In this document: positions 8,935 through 50,401 of the stretch, one piece after another
How positions within the stretch are numbered: position 1 is the first letter of the stretch
How the letters are laid out: each line of letters opens with the position of its first letter
Sequence record: DRR723986_8153
Length of the DNA: 50,401 nt
Direction: 5' to 3' (one strand)
The notes under the pieces: model-generated
What the model saw: the letters and a program-made list of their open reading frames with translations, nothing else
The model's database searches: none
Told to the model about the DNA's origin: nothing
Position numbers and translations under genes: made by a program

Positions 8935-9423
8935 TTAATTTTTCAGATTATTTATTTTCTGAGACCAAGCCTGTGCCAGATCCCATTCGTTTATCATATA
9001 GTCACTTCGCTGCTCATCATAGAGATCTATAGTAACCGGCTTACTTTGCTCATCATAATGATCTAGCTTTAAGCTGACTTTTTGAATGATCTGCCTCTTC
9101 TCCTTTCCTACCTTCATTTCACGAAAGTTTCTGATAGGACGACAAAGTCGAACCTGACTCAAGTCTATTTTCTGAACTTGGTTCCCTTTGTCCAAGGAAT
9201 TCAGAAATAGCAGTTGGCCATTTTTTTGGTCCAAGCCAATGCAATAAGCCTCCCGCCAGGTATCAAAATCCCCTGATTTCAGATGACTTACTTGTGTTTC
9301 AGACTTGAGTTGTTCCATAAGCAGATTGCTTTTATTCCTTTGTTTTAAACTTGTTAGAATTAATGGCAGGCTTACCATTACTGTCAAAGCCACCGATAAG
9401 GTAATTAATGTTAGTTCACTCAT
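8935..9423 (-). CDS. Hypothetical single-pass membrane protein
   Basis: ATG 9423 with A-rich upstream context; N-terminal TM helix followed by a basic stretch and a soluble domain. Confidence 0.75.
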   Translation of the reverse strand: MSELTLITLSVALTVMVSLPLILTSLKQRNKSNLLMEQLKSETQVSHLKSGDFDTWREAYCIGLDQKNGQLLFLNSLDKGNQVQKIDLSQVRLCRPIRNFREMKVGKEKRQIIQKVSLKLDHYDEQSKPVTIDLYDEQRSDYMINEWDLAQAWSQKINNLKN

Positions 9424-9513
9424 TATTTTTGGATGGATAAATGGAATATTTGTCCTACCTGACTTAGAGAAGCCAGAAGGATTTAGCAAAGTCAAATTGA
9501 ATTGCTATCCGTT

Positions 9514-9891
9514 TTACCAGAAATAATGGAAGGGAAAAATTATTATTGGTGCAGTAAGCGAGCCTAAAAATGGCGAGCTCGAATAGATTAGATCCAATAA
9601 GGAATTAGTATCCTGAACAAATTTTGGGTCTAAAATTGACGAAAAAAGAACTGGCCAATGTCCCGTTCCTGAACCCAAATTCTCATTGGAGCTTTGCCTA
9701 CTGATCCTATTCCAATCAGGATTAACACAAGGCTGAAAATCAGAGAAATTTGCATCTCCTTTCGTAATGCTATAATTACCTCTATCCCCAAATTCACTTG
9801 CGTACACCTGCGCTCCCAATCCTGTAGAGGGCAAAACCACCCACAGCAGGAAATAGAAAACGAGGTAAACAAGTGAAATTATTTTTTTCAT
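9514..9891 (-). CDS. Hypothetical signal/TM-bearing protein ending IIFPFHYFW (candidate regulatory leader/arrest peptide)
   Basis: MKK plus hydrophobic N-terminus, polar middle, aromatic C-terminal motif at the stop; a promoter element lies 40 nt upstream. Confidence 0.7.
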   Translation of the reverse strand: MKKIISLVYLVFYFLLWVVLPSTGLGAQVYASEFGDRGNYSITKGDANFSDFQPCVNPDWNRISRQSSNENLGSGTGHWPVLFSSILDPKFVQDTNSLLDLIYSSSPFLGSLTAPIIIFPFHYFW

Positions 9892-9931
9892 TTTTTACGA
9901 AAAGAAGGCTCTTTATGGCACCAAAGCCGCA

Positions 9932-9939
9932 CAAAAGTA
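9932..9939 (-). promoter_or_regulatory. -7 promoter element for the 9891 ORF
   Basis: Minus strand TACTTTTG, a perfect TAnnTTTG. Confidence 0.6.
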
Positions 9940-9981
9940 AGTGAATCTTCGTTAGTTTTGATCTATTCCCAATTCTCGCTT

Positions 9982-11445
9982 ATGTCTGTAACGGCCGAAA
10001 ATATTCTTTTAATCAGTTCTCTTTTACTTTTAGCAGGTGTTTTGGCGAGCAAAACTGCTGGTAAGACCGGCATTCCTATGCTTCTGATTTTCTTAGGAGT
10101 TGGGATGCTGGCTGGTTCAGACGGGATTGGCGGGATTAGATTTGACAATCCTGCCATAGCACAGTTCCTAGGAATCATTGCACTCACCTATATTCTTTAC
10201 TCAGGAGGTATTGACACCAAGTGGCCAAGCATAAAGCCAGTACTCAAACCTGGAATCACACTTTCTACCTTAGGCGTTTTGCTAACGAGTTTTTCTCTGG
10301 GCGGGTTCGTTTATATGATTTCGGAGCTAAGCTTTCTTGAAAGCCTATTACTCGGATCTATCGTTTCCTCTACAGATGCCGCTGCTGTTTTCTCTGTTTT
10401 ACGGGCAAAAAGCATAGGATTAAAAGGGCATTTGAGACCGCTACTCGAATTGGAAAGCGGAAGTAACGATCCCATGGCATATTTCCTGACTGTTTCGATC
10501 CTCGGACTGATCACTTTAGAAACGGGTTCGATCTGGGAAATTATCCCTCTGTTTTTTATTCAGATGATTGTTGGCGGTTTATTAGGCTGGCTGTTTGGGA
10601 GAGCTACCGTATTATTAATCAATAAAATCAAACTGGATTTTGAAGGGCTTTACCCTGTGATGCTTCTTGCTTTAGTATTGATTACCTACACGACGACGGA
10701 TCTATTGAAGGGCAACGGATTTCTCGCCGTTTATATCAGTGCTATCACTGTTGGGAATGCCAATATGGCCCACAAGAAAAGCCTCATGAAATTCTTTGAT
10801 GGGATCGCATGGTTGATGCAAGTGATCATGTTCATCACTTTAGGTCTCTTGGTTTTTCCTAAGCAACTCTTCCCTGTCTCAGGAATTGCAATTTTAGCTG
10901 CACTCTTTTTGATTTTCGTCGCACGACCGCTAGGAGTGTTCATCTCACTTTCCTTTTTCAAATACAAGCTTCGCGAAAAGACTTTTATCTCCTGGGTGGG
11001 ACTCAGAGGAGCAGTTCCTATCGTATTTGCGACACTACCCCTGATCGAAAATATAGAAATGGCTTCTACGATTTTCCATATCGTCTTCTTCATCGTATTA
11101 GCTTCAGTTGCAATTCAGGCGACTACCCTTCCTATAGCTGCAAAACTCCTGCATCTCTCTCTACCGGCTTCCTTGAAGCGAAGATCTATGTTAGACATCG
11201 AGCTTTCTGATGATTTCAAGAATGCGATTCTGGAAGTTCAGCTACCAAGGAACAGCATGATTGCTGGGAAGAAAATTTTGCAATTGGGATTCCCAAATAC
11301 TTCTTTAATCGTACTTGTGAAAAGAAACGGAAAATTTATCACGCCAAATGGCCAAACCGAGCTGGAAGAATTGGACGAGCTTATGATCATGTTGGAAAAT
11401 GACCAGGAAGAGGAGCAGATAAAGAATCTCCTTCAGATTAAATGA
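9982..11445 (+). CDS. cvrA: Potassium/proton antiporter (CPA1, NhaP2/CvrA type) with C-terminal TrkA-C domain
   Basis: STDAAAVFS, ELESGSNDPMA, GNGFLAVY and WVGLRGAVPI motifs; many TM helices; ATG 9982. Confidence 0.92.
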   Translation: MSVTAENILLISSLLLLAGVLASKTAGKTGIPMLLIFLGVGMLAGSDGIGGIRFDNPAIAQFLGIIALTYILYSGGIDTKWPSIKPVLKPGITLSTLGVLLTSFSLGGFVYMISELSFLESLLLGSIVSSTDAAAVFSVLRAKSIGLKGHLRPLLELESGSNDPMAYFLTVSILGLITLETGSIWEIIPLFFIQMIVGGLLGWLFGRATVLLINKIKLDFEGLYPVMLLALVLITYTTTDLLKGNGFLAVYISAITVGNANMAHKKSLMKFFDGIAWLMQVIMFITLGLLVFPKQLFPVSGIAILAALFLIFVARPLGVFISLSFFKYKLREKTFISWVGLRGAVPIVFATLPLIENIEMASTIFHIVFFIVLASVAIQATTLPIAAKLLHLSLPASLKRRSMLDIELSDDFKNAILEVQLPRNSMIAGKKILQLGFPNTSLIVLVKRNGKFITPNGQTELEELDELMIMLENDQEEEQIKNLLQIK

Positions 11446-11628
11446 GGTAAGTCATAAGTTTTGACACCTAAGAAGTCGAACAATTTGCCAAACGCTTCTT
11501 CAAGTTCGGCAGATATTTATAAAAATCGACGGGATAATCAGAGGATTATTTACTTTCCATTTGCAGTATGACTGATAGTATTTCACCAAAAAAAATTAGC
11601 CCACCCCACTATTAAACCCGATAAGGAA

Positions 11629-11666
11629 GCGTCAGGAGAATCTAGCAAGAAAAATTCCCCTGACGC
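11629..11666. other. GC-rich hairpin in the convergent intergenic region
   Basis: GCGTCAGGAGAAT-N12-ATTCCCCTGACGC, 13-bp arms with one mismatch (G-U on the minus strand). Confidence 0.55.
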
Positions 11667-11808
11667 AGGAAAAATAAGAGTTGAAAAAGGAAAGCTCATA
11701 GCTTGAAAAGCATTTTAAAAAATAACCCAATCAAATCCTTGAGAAATTAGCAGAGATCATATTAATTATTTTGTTGGTGGCTGACCTATTCAGCTGGTTT
11801 CCAGCCCC

Positions 11809-11878
11809 CCGTCTTTCCTCTTCGCCCTTATGCCTCTCGGCTACAGTCTTTCACCAAGTGGCTCCCAAGACCAGACTC
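11809..11878. repeat. Degenerate period-7 tract
   Basis: ccgtCTt tcctCTt cgccCTt atgcCTc tcggCTa cagtCTt tcaccaa gtggCTc ccaagac cagaCTc; CT at positions 5-6 in 8 of 10 heptamers. Confidence 0.55.
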
Positions 11879-11879
11879 C

Positions 11880-12209
11880 TCACAACCTGCGAATCATCTC
11901 AATCAACTCCAGCTGGGCGTTTGCTTCAATTACATTTGCCTTGAGCCGGTAAAACTCCTCTTCAAGCAGCGTAAACTGTACATCAGGATGATAGGTCTCA
12001 ATCACAACCCGGTCAAATCCATCAAAGAAGGGATACTTTTCAAATTCAAATTCCATCCGGTCCAGATAGCTGCAGAAAGCATCAAAATTGAGCGCATCAA
12101 AGCTGATCATCGCTTGCTTATACATAAGCCCCATCCTGTCACAATCGGCACATTTAGTGAAAACAAAATCTTCCGTTTGATAGACTATTTCTGTTTTACA
12201 TGAGGACAT
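11880..12209 (-). CDS. Small Cys-containing hypothetical protein (DUF6686-like)
   Basis: 109 aa, N-terminal C...CxxC (CADC); sits in an iron-uptake locus. Family name recalled from memory. Confidence 0.7.
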   Translation of the reverse strand: MSSCKTEIVYQTEDFVFTKCADCDRMGLMYKQAMISFDALNFDAFCSYLDRMEFEFEKYPFFDGFDRVVIETYHPDVQFTLLEEEFYRLKANVIEANAQLELIEMIRRL

Positions 12210-12232
12210 AAGCTTCTTGGTTGAATGAAAGG

Positions 12233-12417
12233 AAAATAGTGCCTGGGATAAAAGCTAAGGTCGGTTTAGTTTCCAAATGCAGCCAATTTCCCAGGGCTTA
12301 GTTATACAGATAAGGTTATCTCTTAAGGCCTATGAAGTACTCAAAACCCAATTACTAGTACTAGGTGAGTTTAAATCATTTGACTCGTTTTATTTTTATT
12401 TAGATTAATTTTAAATT
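12233..12417 (-). ncRNA. Candidate Fur-repressed sRNA or long structured 5' leader
   Basis: Promoter at 12422-12453 and Fur-like box at 12398-12416; no real ORF; long imperfect hairpin at 12241-12297 followed by a U-rich tract. Confidence 0.45.
12398..12416. promoter_or_regulatory. Fur-box-like palindrome
   Basis: ATTTAGATTAATTTTAAAT; same motif family as the two copies upstream of the TonB receptor. Confidence 0.7.
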
Positions 12418-12421
12418 AAAA

Positions 12422-12453
12422 CAAATCTAAGCCATGAGAGCCAGTCTGGCAAG
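12422..12453 (-). promoter_or_regulatory. Bacteroidota sigma70-type promoter
   Basis: Minus strand CTTG-N20-TAGATTTG. Confidence 0.65.
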
Positions 12454-12502
12454 GATCTCTGGAATTATTTAAAGGTTTTTTGGAAGAAAAAGTAAGTGTA
12501 AA

Positions 12503-12537
12503 AGTTTAGAGTCCATAAACTACAGTCCACAGCCTGA
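12503..12537. repeat. Degenerate heptamer tandem repeat
   Basis: agtttag agtccat aaactac agtccac agcctga. Confidence 0.5.
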
Positions 12538-12602
12538 CAAAAGGAACTTCCATTCTTTATTTACAAACAGATACTAGCGATAGCGAATGATAAATCCTTC
12601 CT

Positions 12603-12638
12603 AAAATGCAGAAAGGCTGCAAAACCTTACAACCTTTC
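12603..12638 (-). terminator. Probable terminator of the TonB receptor-PepSY operon
   Basis: Minus strand GAAAGGTTGTAA-GGTT-TTGCAGCCTTTC then TGCATTTT, 25 nt after the stop. Confidence 0.6.
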
Positions 12639-12662
12639 CACCTTACCACTCTAAACTTAAAT

Positions 12663-13826
12663 TCAAGCTTCCGACAACACCATCTTCTCCTTAGCTTCAC
12701 CCTCAGATTCTTTCTTTGCCTTATTTCTCCTTCCCCACCAGATCAAAAATCCAGTCACTGGAAGTGAAGCGATAATCGCACTTAGGAAAAAAGCTAAGAT
12801 TTTACCCGGCAAACCCGCAATGGCGCCCACGTGCACATCATAGTTCATCCGCATAATTTTCTGGGCTACAGTTGCCTCTTCGAATCGGTTGTAAAAATGC
12901 TCCACAGGAAGTTCTTCCAAGGTATTCTGATCAAAATACCGGTAGTCAGACTTCCAATAAGTAGATGCGTCCGGATTTGCGTTGGCTGCAATAGCCGCTC
13001 CTTCGAAACCCGGAGGATGAACTTCTATCCAATCCGCATTTGGATATTCTGCATTCATCTTCATCCAAACCGCATCCAAAGCCGGGATTTCTCCCTGATA
13101 AGTCTGGGTGGAATCCGAAATTGGATCGTAATATTCTACAAATTTCTCCCCACCCGAAGCGACAAAATACAAAGTATCTCTGAACCATAAGAAGCCCCAG
13201 ACCAAACCTGTAATTGCAAAAACCAAGGCAAAAGTCATTACATAGAATCCTAAGACTTGATGCAGATCATAATTTTTTCTTCTCCATCGAGCAGACCACT
13301 TGACCTTCAGGCTTTGCTTCAAGTTCTTTTTCTTTGGCCACCAAAGAATCAAACCCGAAATCACCATAAATAGAAATACTAAGGTAAATGATGCCACTAC
13401 TGGCTGACCTATTTCCGGTGGAAGCCACAGGTAAAAATGTCCGTCTAATACGATTCGAAAAAAGTCAGCATACTCATCCTTTAGCTTGAGAACCTCACCG
13501 GAATAAGGATTGATGTATGCGATTTGGTAGTGGTCATTCCCTTCCCCATAGCTGAAGAATATAGCCTGAACAGATTTTTCTTTGGTAGGATAAAGAATCG
13601 CGTGTAAATGCCCTTCAGGAAAAGCCTTCTCTGCAATCGTAGTGATCTCACTCGGTGTCAAAACGGCAGTTTCCTGAGGTTCCACAAATAGAAATGGATA
13701 AGTCAATTCTTTGATTTCGGCCTGAAATGCGTAGATACAACCAGTAACTGCCACAATAAACACCACTAGCCCGGATGAAAGTCCGAGCCAGAGATGAAGT
13801 TTATTAATTGCCTTCTTTAGTTTCAT
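12663..13826 (-). CDS. PepSY-associated TM helix protein (iron-regulated; putative ferric-siderophore reductase)
   Basis: KLHLWLGL, LDGHFYLWL, YDLHQVLGFY and YDVHVG conserved His motifs; overlaps the receptor stop. Confidence 0.9.
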   Translation of the reverse strand: MKLKKAINKLHLWLGLSSGLVVFIVAVTGCIYAFQAEIKELTYPFLFVEPQETAVLTPSEITTIAEKAFPEGHLHAILYPTKEKSVQAIFFSYGEGNDHYQIAYINPYSGEVLKLKDEYADFFRIVLDGHFYLWLPPEIGQPVVASFTLVFLFMVISGLILWWPKKKNLKQSLKVKWSARWRRKNYDLHQVLGFYVMTFALVFAITGLVWGFLWFRDTLYFVASGGEKFVEYYDPISDSTQTYQGEIPALDAVWMKMNAEYPNADWIEVHPPGFEGAAIAANANPDASTYWKSDYRYFDQNTLEELPVEHFYNRFEEATVAQKIMRMNYDVHVGAIAGLPGKILAFFLSAIIASLPVTGFLIWWGRRNKAKKESEGEAKEKMVLSEA

Positions 13827-16204
13827 TAAAATCTATAATTGAGACTAAGTGATACATTTCTTAGATTCTGCGGGGTCACTGTGGACCAGCCTGAATAGTA
13901 CTTTTGATCTGTCAGATTATTGACCTTCAAGGCTAAGAAATATTGTGAGCCTGTATAAGATAGTGACGCGTTAAAAACCTGATAGGATGGAAGCTCAAAT
14001 GAGCCGATCACATCTCTGTTTATAGTAAGGTATTCACTGGCAGTGTTACCACCAAAGCCAAGTCCAAAGCCTTTCAATGCGCCCGCTGAGAAATTATAGC
14101 TTGCCCAAAAATTGAACAAATCTGCTGGTCCTGCTTCTTCAGGACGTAGTCCCAAGTACCCACTTTCAGCATAATCCTTGGTCACCTCTGCGTCATTGTG
14201 GCTAAACCCTGCCACCAAACTCAATCCGTCCACTGGACTTGCAATCACACTTAGCTCAAATCCTTTGCTGACTACCTCACCACCTTGGATAGAATTGTTC
14301 ACGTTGGTAGGATCAGTCATGACACGATTGCTCACTGTGATATTGTAGTAGCTGGCAGTTGCAGAGATTTTGTCGTTTAGCAAGTTGGTCTTCACACCAA
14401 ACTCATATTGGTTGGCTTTCTCAGCATCAAAAGTTTTAAAACGTGAATTGGTACCGTCGGCATCTGTCACGGTGGTTGGTGCTATATTTTTGAAGCCATT
14501 CATATAGTTTCCAAAGATGGAAACCTTGTCTTTCACTGGCTGGTAAACCACTCCGAATTTAGGAGAAACAGCTGTTTGCGTGTTTTCGTTGTTATCAGTA
14601 CCCCAGGCTTCATTTTTGAAGTTATCCACCCGTAGACTTGCCATCACAGAAAGCTGCGAAGTCAGTTCCAATACATCCGATACATAAGCACTCAAAACTC
14701 TCGTATTGCCTGTAGTATTTCCTTCGAACGTATCTTTAAGCAATTCATCCACTCCTGCTTGGGTCAAAACACCTGTGTCATTTCCATCAGAAAGTGTCAC
14801 TACGCCATTTCCAACCCAACCTGTGCTGCTATTAATCAAATCCTGATCGTAATAATCAACACCTACAATCATTTTATTTTTCATAGCTCCCAGCAGGAAA
14901 TTACCGATGAAATTTTGCTGAATGTCAGTGGAAATCGTCTGCGCATTTCTATCCGAAATATATCGGTAGAAAGAGTCTCCATCACTTCCATCAAATAGGT
15001 AGTGATAGTATCCGTCAGATTTGGTAGAGCTTCTGGAAACTACCGTCTGAGAAGTCCAGCTATTGGAAAGTTTGTAGAAAGCCTGAGCTTGAAGTGCATA
15101 CGAAGTATTGTTGATACTCAGCTCATTTCCAGTAAATGAACGCTCATAATTACGTTCAAAAGGATCAATCGAATCAAAAGTGATTGGATTTGATCTGTTC
15201 AAAAAGATCATCGGCGTATTAACTGAAGTGGCGTTCAAAAACTCGGTGTTGATCAGGAAGGAAAGCCTTTCGCTAGCCTGAAACTTAAATGAAGGGGCAA
15301 TGAAAAATGAATTTCTGTTTCCGGCATCCTGAAAGGTATTGTTGGACTGATATGCTGTATTTACACGCATAGAAGCATTTTCATTCAAAGGAACATTCAC
15401 ATCTCCTGTGATTCTATTTAACCCATAACTTCCTGTGATAAAACCAACTTCTCCTTTAAAGAAATCAGTGGGACGCTTGGTGGTGATATTGATCAAGCCT
15501 CCATAGGAAATCACTGAGCTACCGAAAAGCGTGCCTGATGGACCTTTGATCACATCCACAGTTTCGATATTTGCAGGATCAAGTCCACCATTATTTAAGC
15601 TTGGCATACCATTGACCATAGTTGGCTGGAGTGAAAAACCTCTCATTGAATAGTATTCTGCGCCGTCACCTCCACGCCCTGTAGATTCCCAAAGTCGGGT
15701 TATTCCAGTCGCATTTTTCAGTGCATCATTCATATTCGTTACCACTTGCTCTTTCAGAAGTTTGGAAGAAACTGAGTTGTAGACTTGCGGGTTTTCCAAA
15801 TCTGTCAGAGGAAGTTTAGCTACAGTAAAGTTGCTGTCAGAATAAAAGCGATTGGTACTCATATCCGTGACAATCACTTCATTGAGATCAGTAGAACTTT
15901 CTGACAAAGTGAAATTCACAGAAAGTATTTCTCCAGCACTTAACTGGATATTTTTCTCCTGCTTTTCAATACCTACAAACGAAGCATAAACAGTATAGCT
16001 ACCCGGAGCGATGTTCTTGATTTCAAAAAAACCATTTCTGTCAGTTGCATTGCCCTTCGCAAGGCCTTTGATCCCGACATTAACAAATTCCATCGGCTGG
16101 TCATCCGATGTCTTTACAAATCCTTTAATGCTGGCAGACTGGGCAAAAACGCCAAAAACGCAAAGGTAAAATAGGGTGGATAAGAGTAGAATTTTACGAT
16201 TCAT
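13826..16204 (-). CDS. TonB-dependent siderophore receptor with N-terminal carboxypeptidase-like domain
   Basis: Signal peptide (VFA-Q), plug motif VDVIKGPSGTLFG..GGLINITTK, C-terminal SLNYRF. Confidence 0.95.
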   Translation of the reverse strand: MNRKILLLSTLFYLCVFGVFAQSASIKGFVKTSDDQPMEFVNVGIKGLAKGNATDRNGFFEIKNIAPGSYTVYASFVGIEKQEKNIQLSAGEILSVNFTLSESSTDLNEVIVTDMSTNRFYSDSNFTVAKLPLTDLENPQVYNSVSSKLLKEQVVTNMNDALKNATGITRLWESTGRGGDGAEYYSMRGFSLQPTMVNGMPSLNNGGLDPANIETVDVIKGPSGTLFGSSVISYGGLINITTKRPTDFFKGEVGFITGSYGLNRITGDVNVPLNENASMRVNTAYQSNNTFQDAGNRNSFFIAPSFKFQASERLSFLINTEFLNATSVNTPMIFLNRSNPITFDSIDPFERNYERSFTGNELSINNTSYALQAQAFYKLSNSWTSQTVVSRSSTKSDGYYHYLFDGSDGDSFYRYISDRNAQTISTDIQQNFIGNFLLGAMKNKMIVGVDYYDQDLINSSTGWVGNGVVTLSDGNDTGVLTQAGVDELLKDTFEGNTTGNTRVLSAYVSDVLELTSQLSVMASLRVDNFKNEAWGTDNNENTQTAVSPKFGVVYQPVKDKVSIFGNYMNGFKNIAPTTVTDADGTNSRFKTFDAEKANQYEFGVKTNLLNDKISATASYYNITVSNRVMTDPTNVNNSIQGGEVVSKGFELSVIASPVDGLSLVAGFSHNDAEVTKDYAESGYLGLRPEEAGPADLFNFWASYNFSAGALKGFGLGFGGNTASEYLTINRDVIGSFELPSYQVFNASLSYTGSQYFLALKVNNLTDQKYYSGWSTVTPQNLRNVSLSLNYRF

Positions 16205-16229
16205 GTTGGTTTGGTTTTCAAATATTTCA

Positions 16230-16284
16230 CAAACATATTACTTAGATTAATTCTAAACAATAGTTATTTAGAATTAATCTAAAA
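16230..16284 (-). promoter_or_regulatory. Promoter with two tandem Fur-box-like palindromes
   Basis: TATGTTTG (16237-16230). Boxes ACTTAGATTAATTCTAAAC (16240-16258) and ATTTAGAATTAATCTAAAA (16266-16284). Confidence 0.78.
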
Positions 16285-16407
16285 AAAGTTAAGAGTCCGC
16301 TTTTTGCTTCCCTTTAGCTTTAACTGCATTGCCGGGTCAACTCCATATCTTTTACCTTATTATTTGGAAATACTTAAATTGAAGCAGAATCGCTCAGCAT
16401 AATTTTT

Positions 16408-17016
16408 ATGAAAAAACTTCCTCAACTGACTATTGCCAGCATTTCTATCTTCCTAGGCTTCACCTTTTGGGGAGCTGGTATGGCAAAACTTTTTCACGAT
16501 CACCAGTTTTTTGGATGGATTGGGCCGGTTTGGCTAATCGAAGAATTGGAACCCTATGGTTTGGGCTTCTACGGAAGGTTTATAGCTTTTAGCCAACTAA
16601 TAATTGGATACCTCTTAGTCACCACCCGCTACAAATTGCTTGGTAGCATTATGATGATTCCTTTGATCGGCAATATTTTAATGGTAACGATCTCCTTGCA
16701 ATGGAGTGGAACTCCGATCGTTTTAGCATTTCTTTTATTCTTAGACCTGATATTACTCTGGCAATACAGAGATTTTTTCAGACCCTTGATCGATGAAAGC
16801 AAAAGCAAATATGATATCAAGACTCGAAAAACACGCACTGAAAACGGTCACCTCACTTGGCTAGCAGGACTTGCCCTCCAGATTTTTGCAATTCAAGTTT
16901 CCTATTGGAACTGGATAGTGGCTTGCGGGATAGTTTTGATGGGGCTTGTCCTATCTGGGTTAAGCTTTTATGTAGACAGAATTTTGACCAAGAAGCATGA
17001 TTTAAGAATTACTTAA
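16408..17016 (+). CDS. DoxX-like membrane protein
   Basis: GFTFWGAGMAKLF...FIAFSQLIIGYLL pattern; about 6 TM helices. Confidence 0.7.
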   Translation: MKKLPQLTIASISIFLGFTFWGAGMAKLFHDHQFFGWIGPVWLIEELEPYGLGFYGRFIAFSQLIIGYLLVTTRYKLLGSIMMIPLIGNILMVTISLQWSGTPIVLAFLLFLDLILLWQYRDFFRPLIDESKSKYDIKTRKTRTENGHLTWLAGLALQIFAIQVSYWNWIVACGIVLMGLVLSGLSFYVDRILTKKHDLRIT

Positions 17017-17085
17017 TACGGCTTTTGAAAAGATCATGTCTTTTATGGGCTACTTTACATATATTTTTACTAAAACTCTGACTTA

Positions 17086-18456
17086 ATGAATACCTCAATT
17101 AAGATCGCCTTTGTCATTCTGTTTCTTGTAGCATCCTGCTCTACTCTTACAGCTCAAAATTTTAAACCTTCAGAATTCCCTGACCGGATAATTCTGACTT
17201 GGTCAGACGACCCTATGTCCACCCAATCTGTTACGTGGAGAACTTCTTCTGATGTATCGGTTTCAAAAGCTCAGTTCATCTTAGCGCCGAATACCCCGAT
17301 TTATCTAGACAGTGTAGAGACTGTTATTGCAAGCACTGAATCTCTGGAGGTGGATAATGTAGCAGCAAACTACCATTCCGTAACGTTTCGCGACCTCAAT
17401 GCAGCAACAACTTATGCTTATCGCGTAGGAAATGAAGATACTTGGTCAGAGTGGTTTCAATTCACCACCGCACCAAAAAAAGGAACACCCTTTACTTTTG
17501 CCTACTTTGGCGATGCGCAAAACAACCTCAAATCTCAGTGGTCAAGAATTATTCGGCAGGCTTATTCCAACCTACCGAAAGCGGCATTTATGGTTCACGC
17601 TGGTGATCTAATCAATAGTACACAATCCGACTCCGAATGGGGTGAGTGGAACTATGCTGGGGGATTTATCAACGCGATGATTCCATCTGTCAGCACACCT
17701 GGTAACCATGAATACGACAGCGAAGAAGATGGGACTTTGGTCTTGGATTACCATTGGCAAAAGCAATTTACATTTCCTAGAAATGGCCCAAATGAGTTTT
17801 CGGAAACTGTTTATTACATAGATTATTCAGATTTGCGTTTGATTTCCCTGAACTCCCAGGAGATAGTACAGAACGAAAAATCTATGGAGACCCAAAAAGT
17901 CTGGTTAGAAAAAGTACTCGCTGAAAACACCCAAAAATGGACAATCATCACTTTTCATCATCCGATTTATTCCTCGGGAACTGGCCGTGACAACAAAGAA
18001 TTTAGAGAGGCTTTCAAGCCTATTTTTGACAAATACAAAGTGGATTTGGTGCTTCAGGGGCATGATCATTCTTACGGAAGAGGAAGAAATCTACCTTCTG
18101 GCGTGGCTAATCAAGATTCAGCTGCTCAAGGCCCTGTCTATGTAGTGTCAGTTAGTGGGCCTAAGATGTACAACCTCACTTTCGATAAGTGGATGGATCG
18201 GGCAGCTTCCAATACACAACTTTACCAACTGATCAGCATAGAAGGAGATCGATTAAGCTATGGGGCATACACAGCTACCGGAGATTTGTACGATGCATTT
18301 GACCTCATCAAAGATGGAGTTCAACCGAAACAATTCATTGATAGAGCTGATAAAGCAATCCAAGAAGCAATAGAGCTAACCCCTGGCTCGGATAAGAAAA
18401 TGACTCCTGAAGAAATGGCTGAGTACATGCGTACCTATAAAAAGGGAAATGAATAA
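17086..18456 (+). CDS. Exported purple acid phosphatase-family metallophosphoesterase
   Basis: N-terminal Ig/FN3-like domain (VTWRT); GDAQ, AGDL, GNHE, HHP and GHDHSY motifs. Confidence 0.9.
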   Translation: MNTSIKIAFVILFLVASCSTLTAQNFKPSEFPDRIILTWSDDPMSTQSVTWRTSSDVSVSKAQFILAPNTPIYLDSVETVIASTESLEVDNVAANYHSVTFRDLNAATTYAYRVGNEDTWSEWFQFTTAPKKGTPFTFAYFGDAQNNLKSQWSRIIRQAYSNLPKAAFMVHAGDLINSTQSDSEWGEWNYAGGFINAMIPSVSTPGNHEYDSEEDGTLVLDYHWQKQFTFPRNGPNEFSETVYYIDYSDLRLISLNSQEIVQNEKSMETQKVWLEKVLAENTQKWTIITFHHPIYSSGTGRDNKEFREAFKPIFDKYKVDLVLQGHDHSYGRGRNLPSGVANQDSAAQGPVYVVSVSGPKMYNLTFDKWMDRAASNTQLYQLISIEGDRLSYGAYTATGDLYDAFDLIKDGVQPKQFIDRADKAIQEAIELTPGSDKKMTPEEMAEYMRTYKKGNE

Positions 18457-50262: not shown

Positions 50263-50401
50263 TTATTTAGATCTTTTGCTTACGATGAACTTGTTTGAAT
50301 ACTTCTTAGGAGATCTTGTTTTCTTACCTTTAGACAATAGACCTTTTCTAGATCTAGGGTGTCCTCCAGAAGAACGACCTTCACCACCACCCATTGGGTG
50401 A
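50263..50401 (-). CDS. rplB: 50S ribosomal protein L2, C-terminal part (truncated by window)
   Basis: [20 protein letters not shown]...[11 protein letters not shown]. Confidence 0.97.

Follow-up and report, generated by a model that had tools for sequence, protein, structure and literature searches.

A candidate Fur-type promoter and a conserved stem-loop ahead of a DUF6686 gene shared with Algoriphagus and Cyclobacterium

Sequence record DRR723986_8153 comprises 50,401 nucleotides (the whole stretch analysed, hereafter the window), and between positions 12453 and 12210 of its minus strand lies a segment with a promoter, a Fur-like box and a long hairpin that precedes the gene for a small cysteine-containing protein, DUF6686. 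The segment raises the question as to whether it is a free-standing gene for an iron-regulated small RNA (sRNA), as a sequence-only reading of the window had proposed, or the structured leader of the gene behind it. Post-transcriptional control of iron uptake in the Bacteroidota is almost unexplored, and a 2025 preprint (bioRxiv 10.1101/2025.09.08.672848) states that before the sRNA IroR the phylum had no reported RNA component of iron homeostasis. The explanation that we favour, at a probability of roughly 0.55, is that the segment constitutes the promoter and 5′ leader of the DUF6686 mRNA, with a Fur-repressed promoter and a cis-acting, factor-recognised stem-loop (hairpin 2), and is not a free-standing sRNA gene. 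The features concerned, all of which lie on the minus strand, are as follows.

12453..12450, minus: −33-like element CTTG of a Bacteroidota-type promoter, read in the sequence
12430..12400, minus: extended 31-nt A/T-rich palindrome, the arms of which pair
12429..12422, minus: −7 box TAGATTTG, after a 20-nt spacer following CTTG and within the left arm of the 31-nt palindrome
12416..12398, minus: Fur-box-like operator ATTTAAAATTAATCTAAAT, a 19-mer overlapping the putative transcription start
12387..12304, minus: lineage-specific 84-nt junction delimited by BLAST breakpoints, holding a 2-codon open reading frame (ORF) and the proposed seed
12379..12371, minus: the 2-codon ORF ATG ATT TAA, read in the sequence, inside the 84-nt junction
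12299..12234, minus: hairpin 2 element with its flanks, AAG(C/U)CCUGGGA, a 36-42-nt interior, then UCCCAGGCAC(C/U)A(A/U)UU
12297..12239, minus: the hairpin itself, read in the sequence, with a CCUGGGA/UCCCAGG base, followed by CACUAUUUUCCUUUC and ending 29 nt before DUF6686
12209..11880, minus: DUF6686 gene, 109 aa (PF20391, 32.0 bits against a cut-off of 23.9, residues 5-99)

A promoter and operator shared with a Xus-like operon

A profile search of genome contigs with a 20-sequence DUF6686 alignment returned 20 loci (L001-L020), of which L017 and L020 represent a single gene cut in two by the start of a chromosome record, giving 19 distinct genes; the 20 instances referred to below are these 19 related loci and the window. 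All 19 are from Algoriphagus and Cyclobacterium (Cyclobacteriaceae), with DUF6686 protein identities of 97-50%. Twelve are operon-type loci (L002-L008, L014-L016, L019, L020) in which DUF6686 is an internal gene, the order being TonB-dependent receptor (TBDR), DUF4374, hairpin 2, DUF6686, DUF4198, a DUF3325-like gene (108 aa) and PepSY_TM. These relatives carry in one operon all three genes of the Bacteroides XusABC system (TBDR, DUF4374 lipoprotein and PepSY_TM), but the Cyclobacteriaceae operon differs in the addition of DUF6686, DUF4198, the DUF3325-like gene and two conserved RNA hairpins; a link between DUF4374, PepSY and siderophores is made in PMC13142918 and PMC10434189. The TBDR, DUF4374 and PepSY_TM genes appear to be transcribed together with the element in the 12 relatives and not in the window, which retains only the promoter, hairpin 2 and DUF6686 of the Xus-like operon.

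The promoter CTTG-N20-TAGATTTG (12453..12422) and the Fur-like box directly downstream of it, as described in the sequence-only reading, are both present. The 19-mer operator agrees in 17 of its 19 positions with a Fur-box consensus from Riemerella anatipestifer, that consensus being a predicted one from the order Flavobacteriales, while the window locus belongs to the Cytophagales. When up to three mismatches (≤3) are allowed the consensus is found at only three sites in the 50.4-kb window (12398-12416, 16240-16258 and 16266-16284), all three of which stand before iron-uptake genes; counted over both strands there are 5 matches against 0.11 expected, and no shuffled sequence out of 100 gave as many as 5. 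The box starts 5 nt downstream of the −7 element, itself contained in the left palindrome arm, so a bound repressor would be expected to cover both the −7 box and the start site.

This arrangement is strongly conserved. The TTG / N20 / TAnnTTTG geometry is retained in the homologous promoters of all 19 loci, cTTAGATTTG is found in all of the stand-alone (8/8) and operon-type (12/12) promoters, and the promoter with its box (cTTAGATTTG-tTTTAATTTAAAATtAATCTAAATAA) is nearly unchanged in 20/20 homologous promoters, standing ∼100-110 nt upstream of the TBDR gene in 12 loci and upstream of DUF6686 in seven others and the window. Sequence comparison thereby shows the promoter and operator to be orthologous to the element that drives the Xus-like iron-uptake operon in related Algoriphagus and Cyclobacterium, and motif and context support its interpretation as an operator of the iron (Fur) type on a promoter of the Bacteroidota type.

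The closest described counterpart is the Fur regulon of R. anatipestifer, in which a 19-nt A/T-rich palindrome likewise overlaps a −33/−7 promoter before TonB-dependent receptor genes and their partners. Parts of PMC5609570 mention this Bacteroidota promoter type and describe electrophoretic mobility shift assays (EMSA) of Fur on promoter fragments containing the R. anatipestifer Fur box, and a portion of PMC10986502 describes Fur binding, also by EMSA, to a promoter fragment with a closely similar box. The site described here differs in belonging to another order, in forming an extended 31-nt palindrome that includes the −7 box, and in being a predicted Fur site; it would represent an additional promoter of the Bacteroidota Fur-box class, and offers a well-delimited Fur-type operator for the Cyclobacteriaceae. 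Half-site versions of the box also precede PepSY-type genes at L012:780 and L018:1828.

A conserved stem-loop before DUF6686

The hairpin with a CCUGGGA/UCCCAGG base that the earlier description had placed ahead of DUF6686 is not peculiar to the window. An element of the form AAG(U/C)CCUGGG ... CCCAGGCAC(C)AAUU precedes DUF6686 in 19/19 loci as well as in the window, and both its basal stem and the single-stranded flanks, AAG and CACCAAUU, are nearly invariant. A covariance model (R1) built on the 8-bp basal stem and run over 265 kb (the window and the loci) finds exactly one copy in the window and one per locus, with E values from 1e-17 to 3e-6, and a single extra copy at L009:496-575 (E ∼1e-3), between the DUF4374 stop codon and DUF4198. 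Pairing in the basal stem amounts to 97.4%. The 221-nt leader as a whole folds unexceptionally (z = −1.44; 13 of 200 shuffles fold equally well); the window hairpin alone has a z score of −3.27, and hairpin-only z scores range from −1.8 to −4.7 in 19/19 rows, with L019 at −4.70. At 50% DUF6686 divergence all other intergenic sequence is unrecognisable, and the comparison shows hairpin 2 to be the only conserved part of the window leader downstream of the operator.

The interior behaves differently from the base. In the main Algoriphagus clade it is conserved in sequence (GGAAACUAAACC in 11/13), whereas the interiors of Cyclobacterium, L013, L018, L019 and the extra copy in L009 are unrelated sequences that nonetheless form extended stems. 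As the interiors cannot be aligned, RNAalifold run on a MAFFT alignment yields the basal stem and nothing more. The Cyclobacterium hairpins are 6-9 kcal/mol more stable on the sense than on the antisense strand; these comparisons of interiors and strands cover 17/19 rows, L019 and the L009 extra copy lying outside them. A riboswitch was considered and rejected, since the interior is wholly replaced in Cyclobacterium, L013, L018, L019 and the L009 extra copy, leaving no conserved core.

The position of the stem-loop relative to the flanking genes is also informative. Wherever DUF4374 is present hairpin 2 starts 8-23 nt after its stop codon, and in 12/20 instances it is intercistronic with no promoter before it. 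Its end lies 27-36 nt from the DUF6686 ATG in 16/20 instances and 89-204 nt in L013-L016 (manual counts for the window, L001, L007 and L019). A U-rich stretch follows the hairpin, offset 4-5 nt from the stem, in the window and about seven loci, among them L004-L006, L008, L009 and L020, and is absent in L002, L003, L007, L010, L012-L016, L018 and L019; a terminator scan did not flag hairpin 2. Inspection by eye found neither a consistent internal −33/−7 promoter in or after the hairpin nor consistent pairing between the hairpin arms and the DUF6686 start codon.

The Rfam comparison that the sequence-only reading had suggested gave no family for either leader or hairpin: at the gathering threshold there are no matches in the window or in seven loci, and a permissive search of window 11800..12800 yields only sub-threshold matches (E at least 1.5), none of them on hairpin 2. 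The same permissive search of L006 1900..6400 gives two sub-threshold matches at 2152-2227, near a second hairpin described below, and again none on hairpin 2. Stem-loops between cistrons or in 5′ untranslated regions are a familiar means of setting differential mRNA stability or of binding proteins, the eukaryotic iron-responsive element (IRE) being an example in concept. Hairpin 2 resembles elements of the IRE type in being a hairpin in a putatively iron-regulated mRNA, in which the base and flanks are conserved and the interior varies, placed between cistrons with differing expression requirements; it differs in having no sequence relation to any of them. We therefore regard it as an undescribed cis-element of a familiar general kind, without an Rfam family, and the locus offers in it a conserved mRNA stem-loop that is new and associated with Xus-like siderophore operons, along with the second hairpin of the relatives.

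The deletion junction and explanations of the segment

How the window came to have a long leader between these two conserved elements is evident from BLAST comparison of window 18000..9000 with the operon-type loci. Window 14521..12388 aligns to L003 1..2134 at 90% identity, and window 12303..11879 to L003 5905..6331 at 81% identity, the two blocks being separated in L003 by 3,770 nt (containing the TBDR leader with its hairpin, TBDR and DUF4374) as opposed to 84 nt in the window; the breakpoints, at window 12388 and 12303, are identical against L006. The alignments show that a deletion of ∼3.77 kb brought the operon promoter up to the stem-loop whose usual place is after the DUF4374 stop codon, with 84 unrelated nucleotides in between. 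Comparison of leader 12397..12298 (100 nt), which holds these nucleotides, with 18 loci by blastn-short and tblastx gave only chance matches of 11-15 nt and no remnant of a deleted gene. The junction is common to the window and L001 (A. winogradskyi) only; these two are 98.3% identical over 9 kb, and their junctions differ by one substitution and a 3-nt indel. Other stand-alone loci have stretches between box and hairpin that differ in both length and sequence, from ∼35 nt (L009, L011) to ∼430 nt (L018), and L018 keeps the TBDR leader hairpin and the first TBDR codons between promoter and hairpin 2 as a remnant.

The DUF6686 tree places the window and L001 inside the operon-type group (100/100 support), and mapping the operon and stand-alone labels onto it requires three changes, at least two of them forced by well-supported branches; the stand-alone arrangement is therefore derived and has arisen more than once. 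Every rearrangement kept hairpin 2 attached to DUF6686. In L009, DUF6686 with its own promoter and hairpin has moved 5 kb downstream, behind a sulfatase gene. L013 (a stand-alone DUF6686) and L019 (a divergent operon-type paralogue, 50% identity) are found in one metagenome-assembled genome (MAG) under the same isolate name, and both arrangements can therefore coexist in one genome. L011 is in a record titled as a MAG of an uncultured Limnohabitans (Betaproteobacteria), yet its DUF6686 locus is of the Algoriphagus type and clusters with A. terrigena, and it is probably a mis-binned contig.

These comparisons bear directly on the proposal that the segment encodes a Fur-repressed, trans-acting sRNA like RyhB, PrrF or FsrA, with the sequence UUUUGAGUACUUCAUAGG as a seed pairing with the translation-start regions of iron-protein mRNAs, a proposal that we now consider very improbable. 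It has in its favour the Fur-like box at the promoter, a hairpin and U-rich tail that could end a 180-nt RNA in the window, and the precedent of an iron-induced sRNA in Bacteroides: the IroR preprint (bioRxiv 10.1101/2025.09.08.672848) describes the B. thetaiotaomicron IroR as iron-induced and as conserved among Bacteroides species only. IroR shows that iron-responsive sRNAs exist in the phylum, and nothing links it to the window locus. The seed sequence is indeed present, at 12346..12329, but its noted complementarity to a start-codon context turns out to be merely its own reverse complement, and no other match to such a target is found in the window, the next best (50293..50310) having three mismatches and no ATG. 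Pairing via GAGUAnUUCAUAGG is further undermined because the segment lies within the 84-nt deletion junction; L001 alone shares the seed with the window and the 18 other loci lack it, the identity of the seed in L001 carrying no weight because L001 and the window are so similar overall, and the other stand-alone leaders differ in length and sequence between box and hairpin. Nor does an independent gene with its own promoter and intrinsic terminator fit the relatives, since the U-tract is not conserved and, in 12 of the 20 instances, the hairpin lies between cistrons without a preceding promoter and cannot there terminate a free-standing sRNA gene of 180 nt. The locus thus shares with RyhB, PrrF, FsrA and IroR a putative iron-type promoter control and, in the window, a possible ∼180-nt RNA with a 3′ hairpin, and differs from them in having no conserved seed, no independent gene in most relatives and no Rfam match. 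What did hold up was the alternative of a structured leader before a small cysteine-containing protein, and also the absence from that leader of any ORF beyond the 2-codon one, there being no sense-strand ORF of at least 30 aa in 12210..12556. A long leader with an apparent seed can, as this locus shows, be a deletion scar.

In the explanation that we favour, Fe-Fur would bind the 31-nt palindrome over the −7 box and transcription start when iron is plentiful and block transcription, and when iron is scarce an mRNA starting near 12417 would be made. The 84-nt junction would be neutral filler, and the stem-loop would be a cis-acting RNA site read by a putative trans-acting factor, most likely adjusting how strongly DUF6686 and the genes that follow it are expressed in relation to the receptor genes, whether by processing, by 5′-end stabilisation, or by factor-dependent attenuation or partial termination. 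A trans-acting factor is the simplest explanation because the stem base and flanks are invariant at 50% protein divergence while the interior need only pair; a plain terminator or stabiliser is less fitting, because neither would need a conserved primary sequence. The role in setting the level of DUF6686 and downstream genes is suggested by the position of the stem-loop at the boundary of the outer-membrane genes (TBDR, DUF4374) and its retention in every rearranged locus. Several points count against this explanation. The positions of the start site and of the 3′ ends are predictions, as is the response to iron, the factor recognising hairpin 2 is a postulate, and the Fur assignment derives from motif similarity to a predicted consensus from another order, the Flavobacteriales, together with genomic context. 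The basal stem is near-invariant and shows little covariation, with compensatory change at two of its eight pairs, and the 42-nt interior of the main clade is weakly structured (z from +0.5 to −1.3), the antisense strand sometimes being the more stable. Furthermore, in Cyclobacterium and L013 the hairpin lies either 8-23 nt after the upstream stop or 89-204 nt from the DUF6686 ATG, positions that accord with a function in DUF6686 expression no better than with one at the 3′ end of the upstream cistron.

Alternatively, the stem-loop would be an attenuator or partial terminator, ending most transcripts after DUF4374 in the operons and after the leader in the window, where a Fur-regulated ∼180-nt RNA would be a by-product without conserved trans function and DUF6686 would be made by read-through. 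The DUF4374 stop lies 8-23 nt before the hairpin in 12/12 operon-type loci, as it does for the extra copy in L009; the window, L004-L006, L008, L009 and L020 have U-rich stretches behind the hairpin, and other terminator-like hairpins of the same genome also have weak U-tracts. However, CAC(C)A separates the U-rich stretch from the stem, the stretch is absent in 11 loci, the large, weakly paired interior of the main clade makes a poor terminator stem, and intrinsic termination does not need invariant sequence in the stem base and flanks; we consider this explanation possible but on balance unlikely. Action at the DNA level, with the inverted half-sites GTCCTGGGA and TCCCAGGCAC, ∼42 bp apart, bound by a transcription factor or serving as a hairpin-forming recombination site, strikes us as decidedly improbable. 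It accords with half-sites that are nearly invariant and spaced by 41-42 nt in 16 of 17 main-clade and Cyclobacterium rows (39 in L013), and a recombination site would explain why rearrangements have repeatedly ended at the hairpin, the breakpoint at window 12303 being 6 nt from it and the element being duplicated in L009. Extended pairing is nonetheless kept by the differing interiors of Cyclobacterium, L018, L019 and the L009 extra copy, which half-site binding does not need, G:U pairs in Cyclobacterium favour the sense RNA strand, and the breakpoints may simply lie where a deletion can end without destroying DUF6686. That the window hairpin is a passive remnant, functionless and not yet decayed since the deletion, is scarcely credible: the deletion is recent, with flanks 90% identical to L003, but the basal stem and flanks survive in stand-alone lineages of greater age (L009-L013 and L018; DUF6686 identity down to 55%), in which the rest of the leader has diverged beyond recognition. 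A more specific possibility, speculative and rather improbable as we judge it, is a circuit similar to that of IRE and iron regulatory protein (IRP), in which DUF6686, with its Cys3-His pattern, would bind the stem-loop in an iron-dependent manner and regulate its own production together with expression of the reductase and permease genes downstream; if true, this would explain why hairpin and DUF6686 stay together under the Fur promoter in every rearrangement. The natural minimal construct of promoter, hairpin and DUF6686 in A. winogradskyi-like strains is well suited to functional tests of both hairpin and protein.

DUF6686, neighbouring genes and a second hairpin

The DUF6686 protein (PF20391) of the window shares 97% identity with its Algoriphagus winogradskyi counterpart. 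The family, a small one, has 84 representative clusters (E ≤1e-3) in a library of 1.84 billion proteins, and its members are stand-alone proteins of ∼105-112 aa. C20 and C23 are near-invariant across the family, and C4, C20, C23 and H74 are invariant in the Cyclobacteriaceae set, the resulting C-x15-C-x2-C ... H pattern suggesting a metal site. An AlphaFold2 model from a 73-sequence alignment (predicted local distance difference test, pLDDT, 95.4; predicted template modelling score, pTM, 0.85) has four beta strands, two helices, two further strands and a long helix. A Foldseek search of the PDB found no significant neighbour, the top entries being the guide-RNA-binding MRP1/MRP2 and Pur-alpha (E 0.1-0.4, TM ∼0.3), and the weak resemblance of the model to Whirly/PUR-like proteins that bind single-stranded nucleic acids is thus a lead and not evidence. 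The sole sequence match in the PDB (E 0.013) is implausible and was discarded, no NCBIfam match was obtained, a structure Atlas search returned only unnamed clusters with scores <0.9, none of these comparisons sufficing to assign a function, and a literature search for 'DUF6686' found no paper.

The neighbouring features of the window, on the same strand, are as follows.

16284..16240, minus: two inverted Fur-box-like sites, 7 nt apart, before the TBDR-PepSY operon
16204..13826, minus: TonB-dependent siderophore receptor gene (TIGR01783, 263.6 bits; Plug and barrel domains)
13826..12663, minus: PepSY_TM gene (Pfam)
12641..12608, minus: terminator-like hairpin 3′ of the PepSY_TM stop codon, a 15-bp stem followed by AUUUU

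The two inverted sites lie in the intergenic region 16205-16407, between the TBDR-PepSY operon and a divergent gene of 202 aa without a Pfam family. PepSY_TM and DUF6686 are separated by 453 nt, and the terminator-like hairpin just after the PepSY_TM stop codon divides off the upstream TBDR-PepSY operon, which makes an independent DUF6686 promoter and transcript plausible. The terminator scan calls an overlapping site (12616..12596) terminator-like, and the hairpin stretch is 97% conserved across 38 nt in L004 and L005. On the 3′ side of DUF6686 the window is without the DUF4198, DUF3325-like and PepSY_TM genes of the relatives' operon; in their place window 9892..11879 holds a convergent Na+/H+ exchanger gene with a TrkA_C domain. 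All that this region has in common with L002 is a 107-nt block (window 11734..11628, aligned to L002 7309..7415), which carries a terminator-like hairpin at 11666..11629.

The relatives also contain a second hairpin, hairpin 1 (GAAGCCAyACGG-CGGCAA-CCGUrUGGCUUC), in the 5′ leader of the TBDR gene (L002:2150-2222), followed by a conserved stretch ending ...CUCCAAUUAAAAAGCGAUG. It is found at the same place in L003-L008, L014-L016, L019 and L020 and as a remnant at L018:5540-5612, and is absent from the window; of its 11 predicted pairs, six show compensatory changes among 13 sequences. The two sub-threshold Rfam matches over it are on the opposite strand, to sar RNA (29 bits against a gathering threshold of 43; E 0.0077) and ctRNA_pGA1 (E 0.98). 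The heptamer ACUAAAC is present in the apex of hairpin 2 in 13/13 main-clade sequences (window 12270..12264) and in the 3′ flank of hairpin 1 in six of eight main-clade operon loci (L004-L008 and L020, near 2197-2238), and occurs in neither hairpin of Cyclobacterium, L013, L018 and L019; it may be a shared recognition site, or its recurrence may be due to chance.

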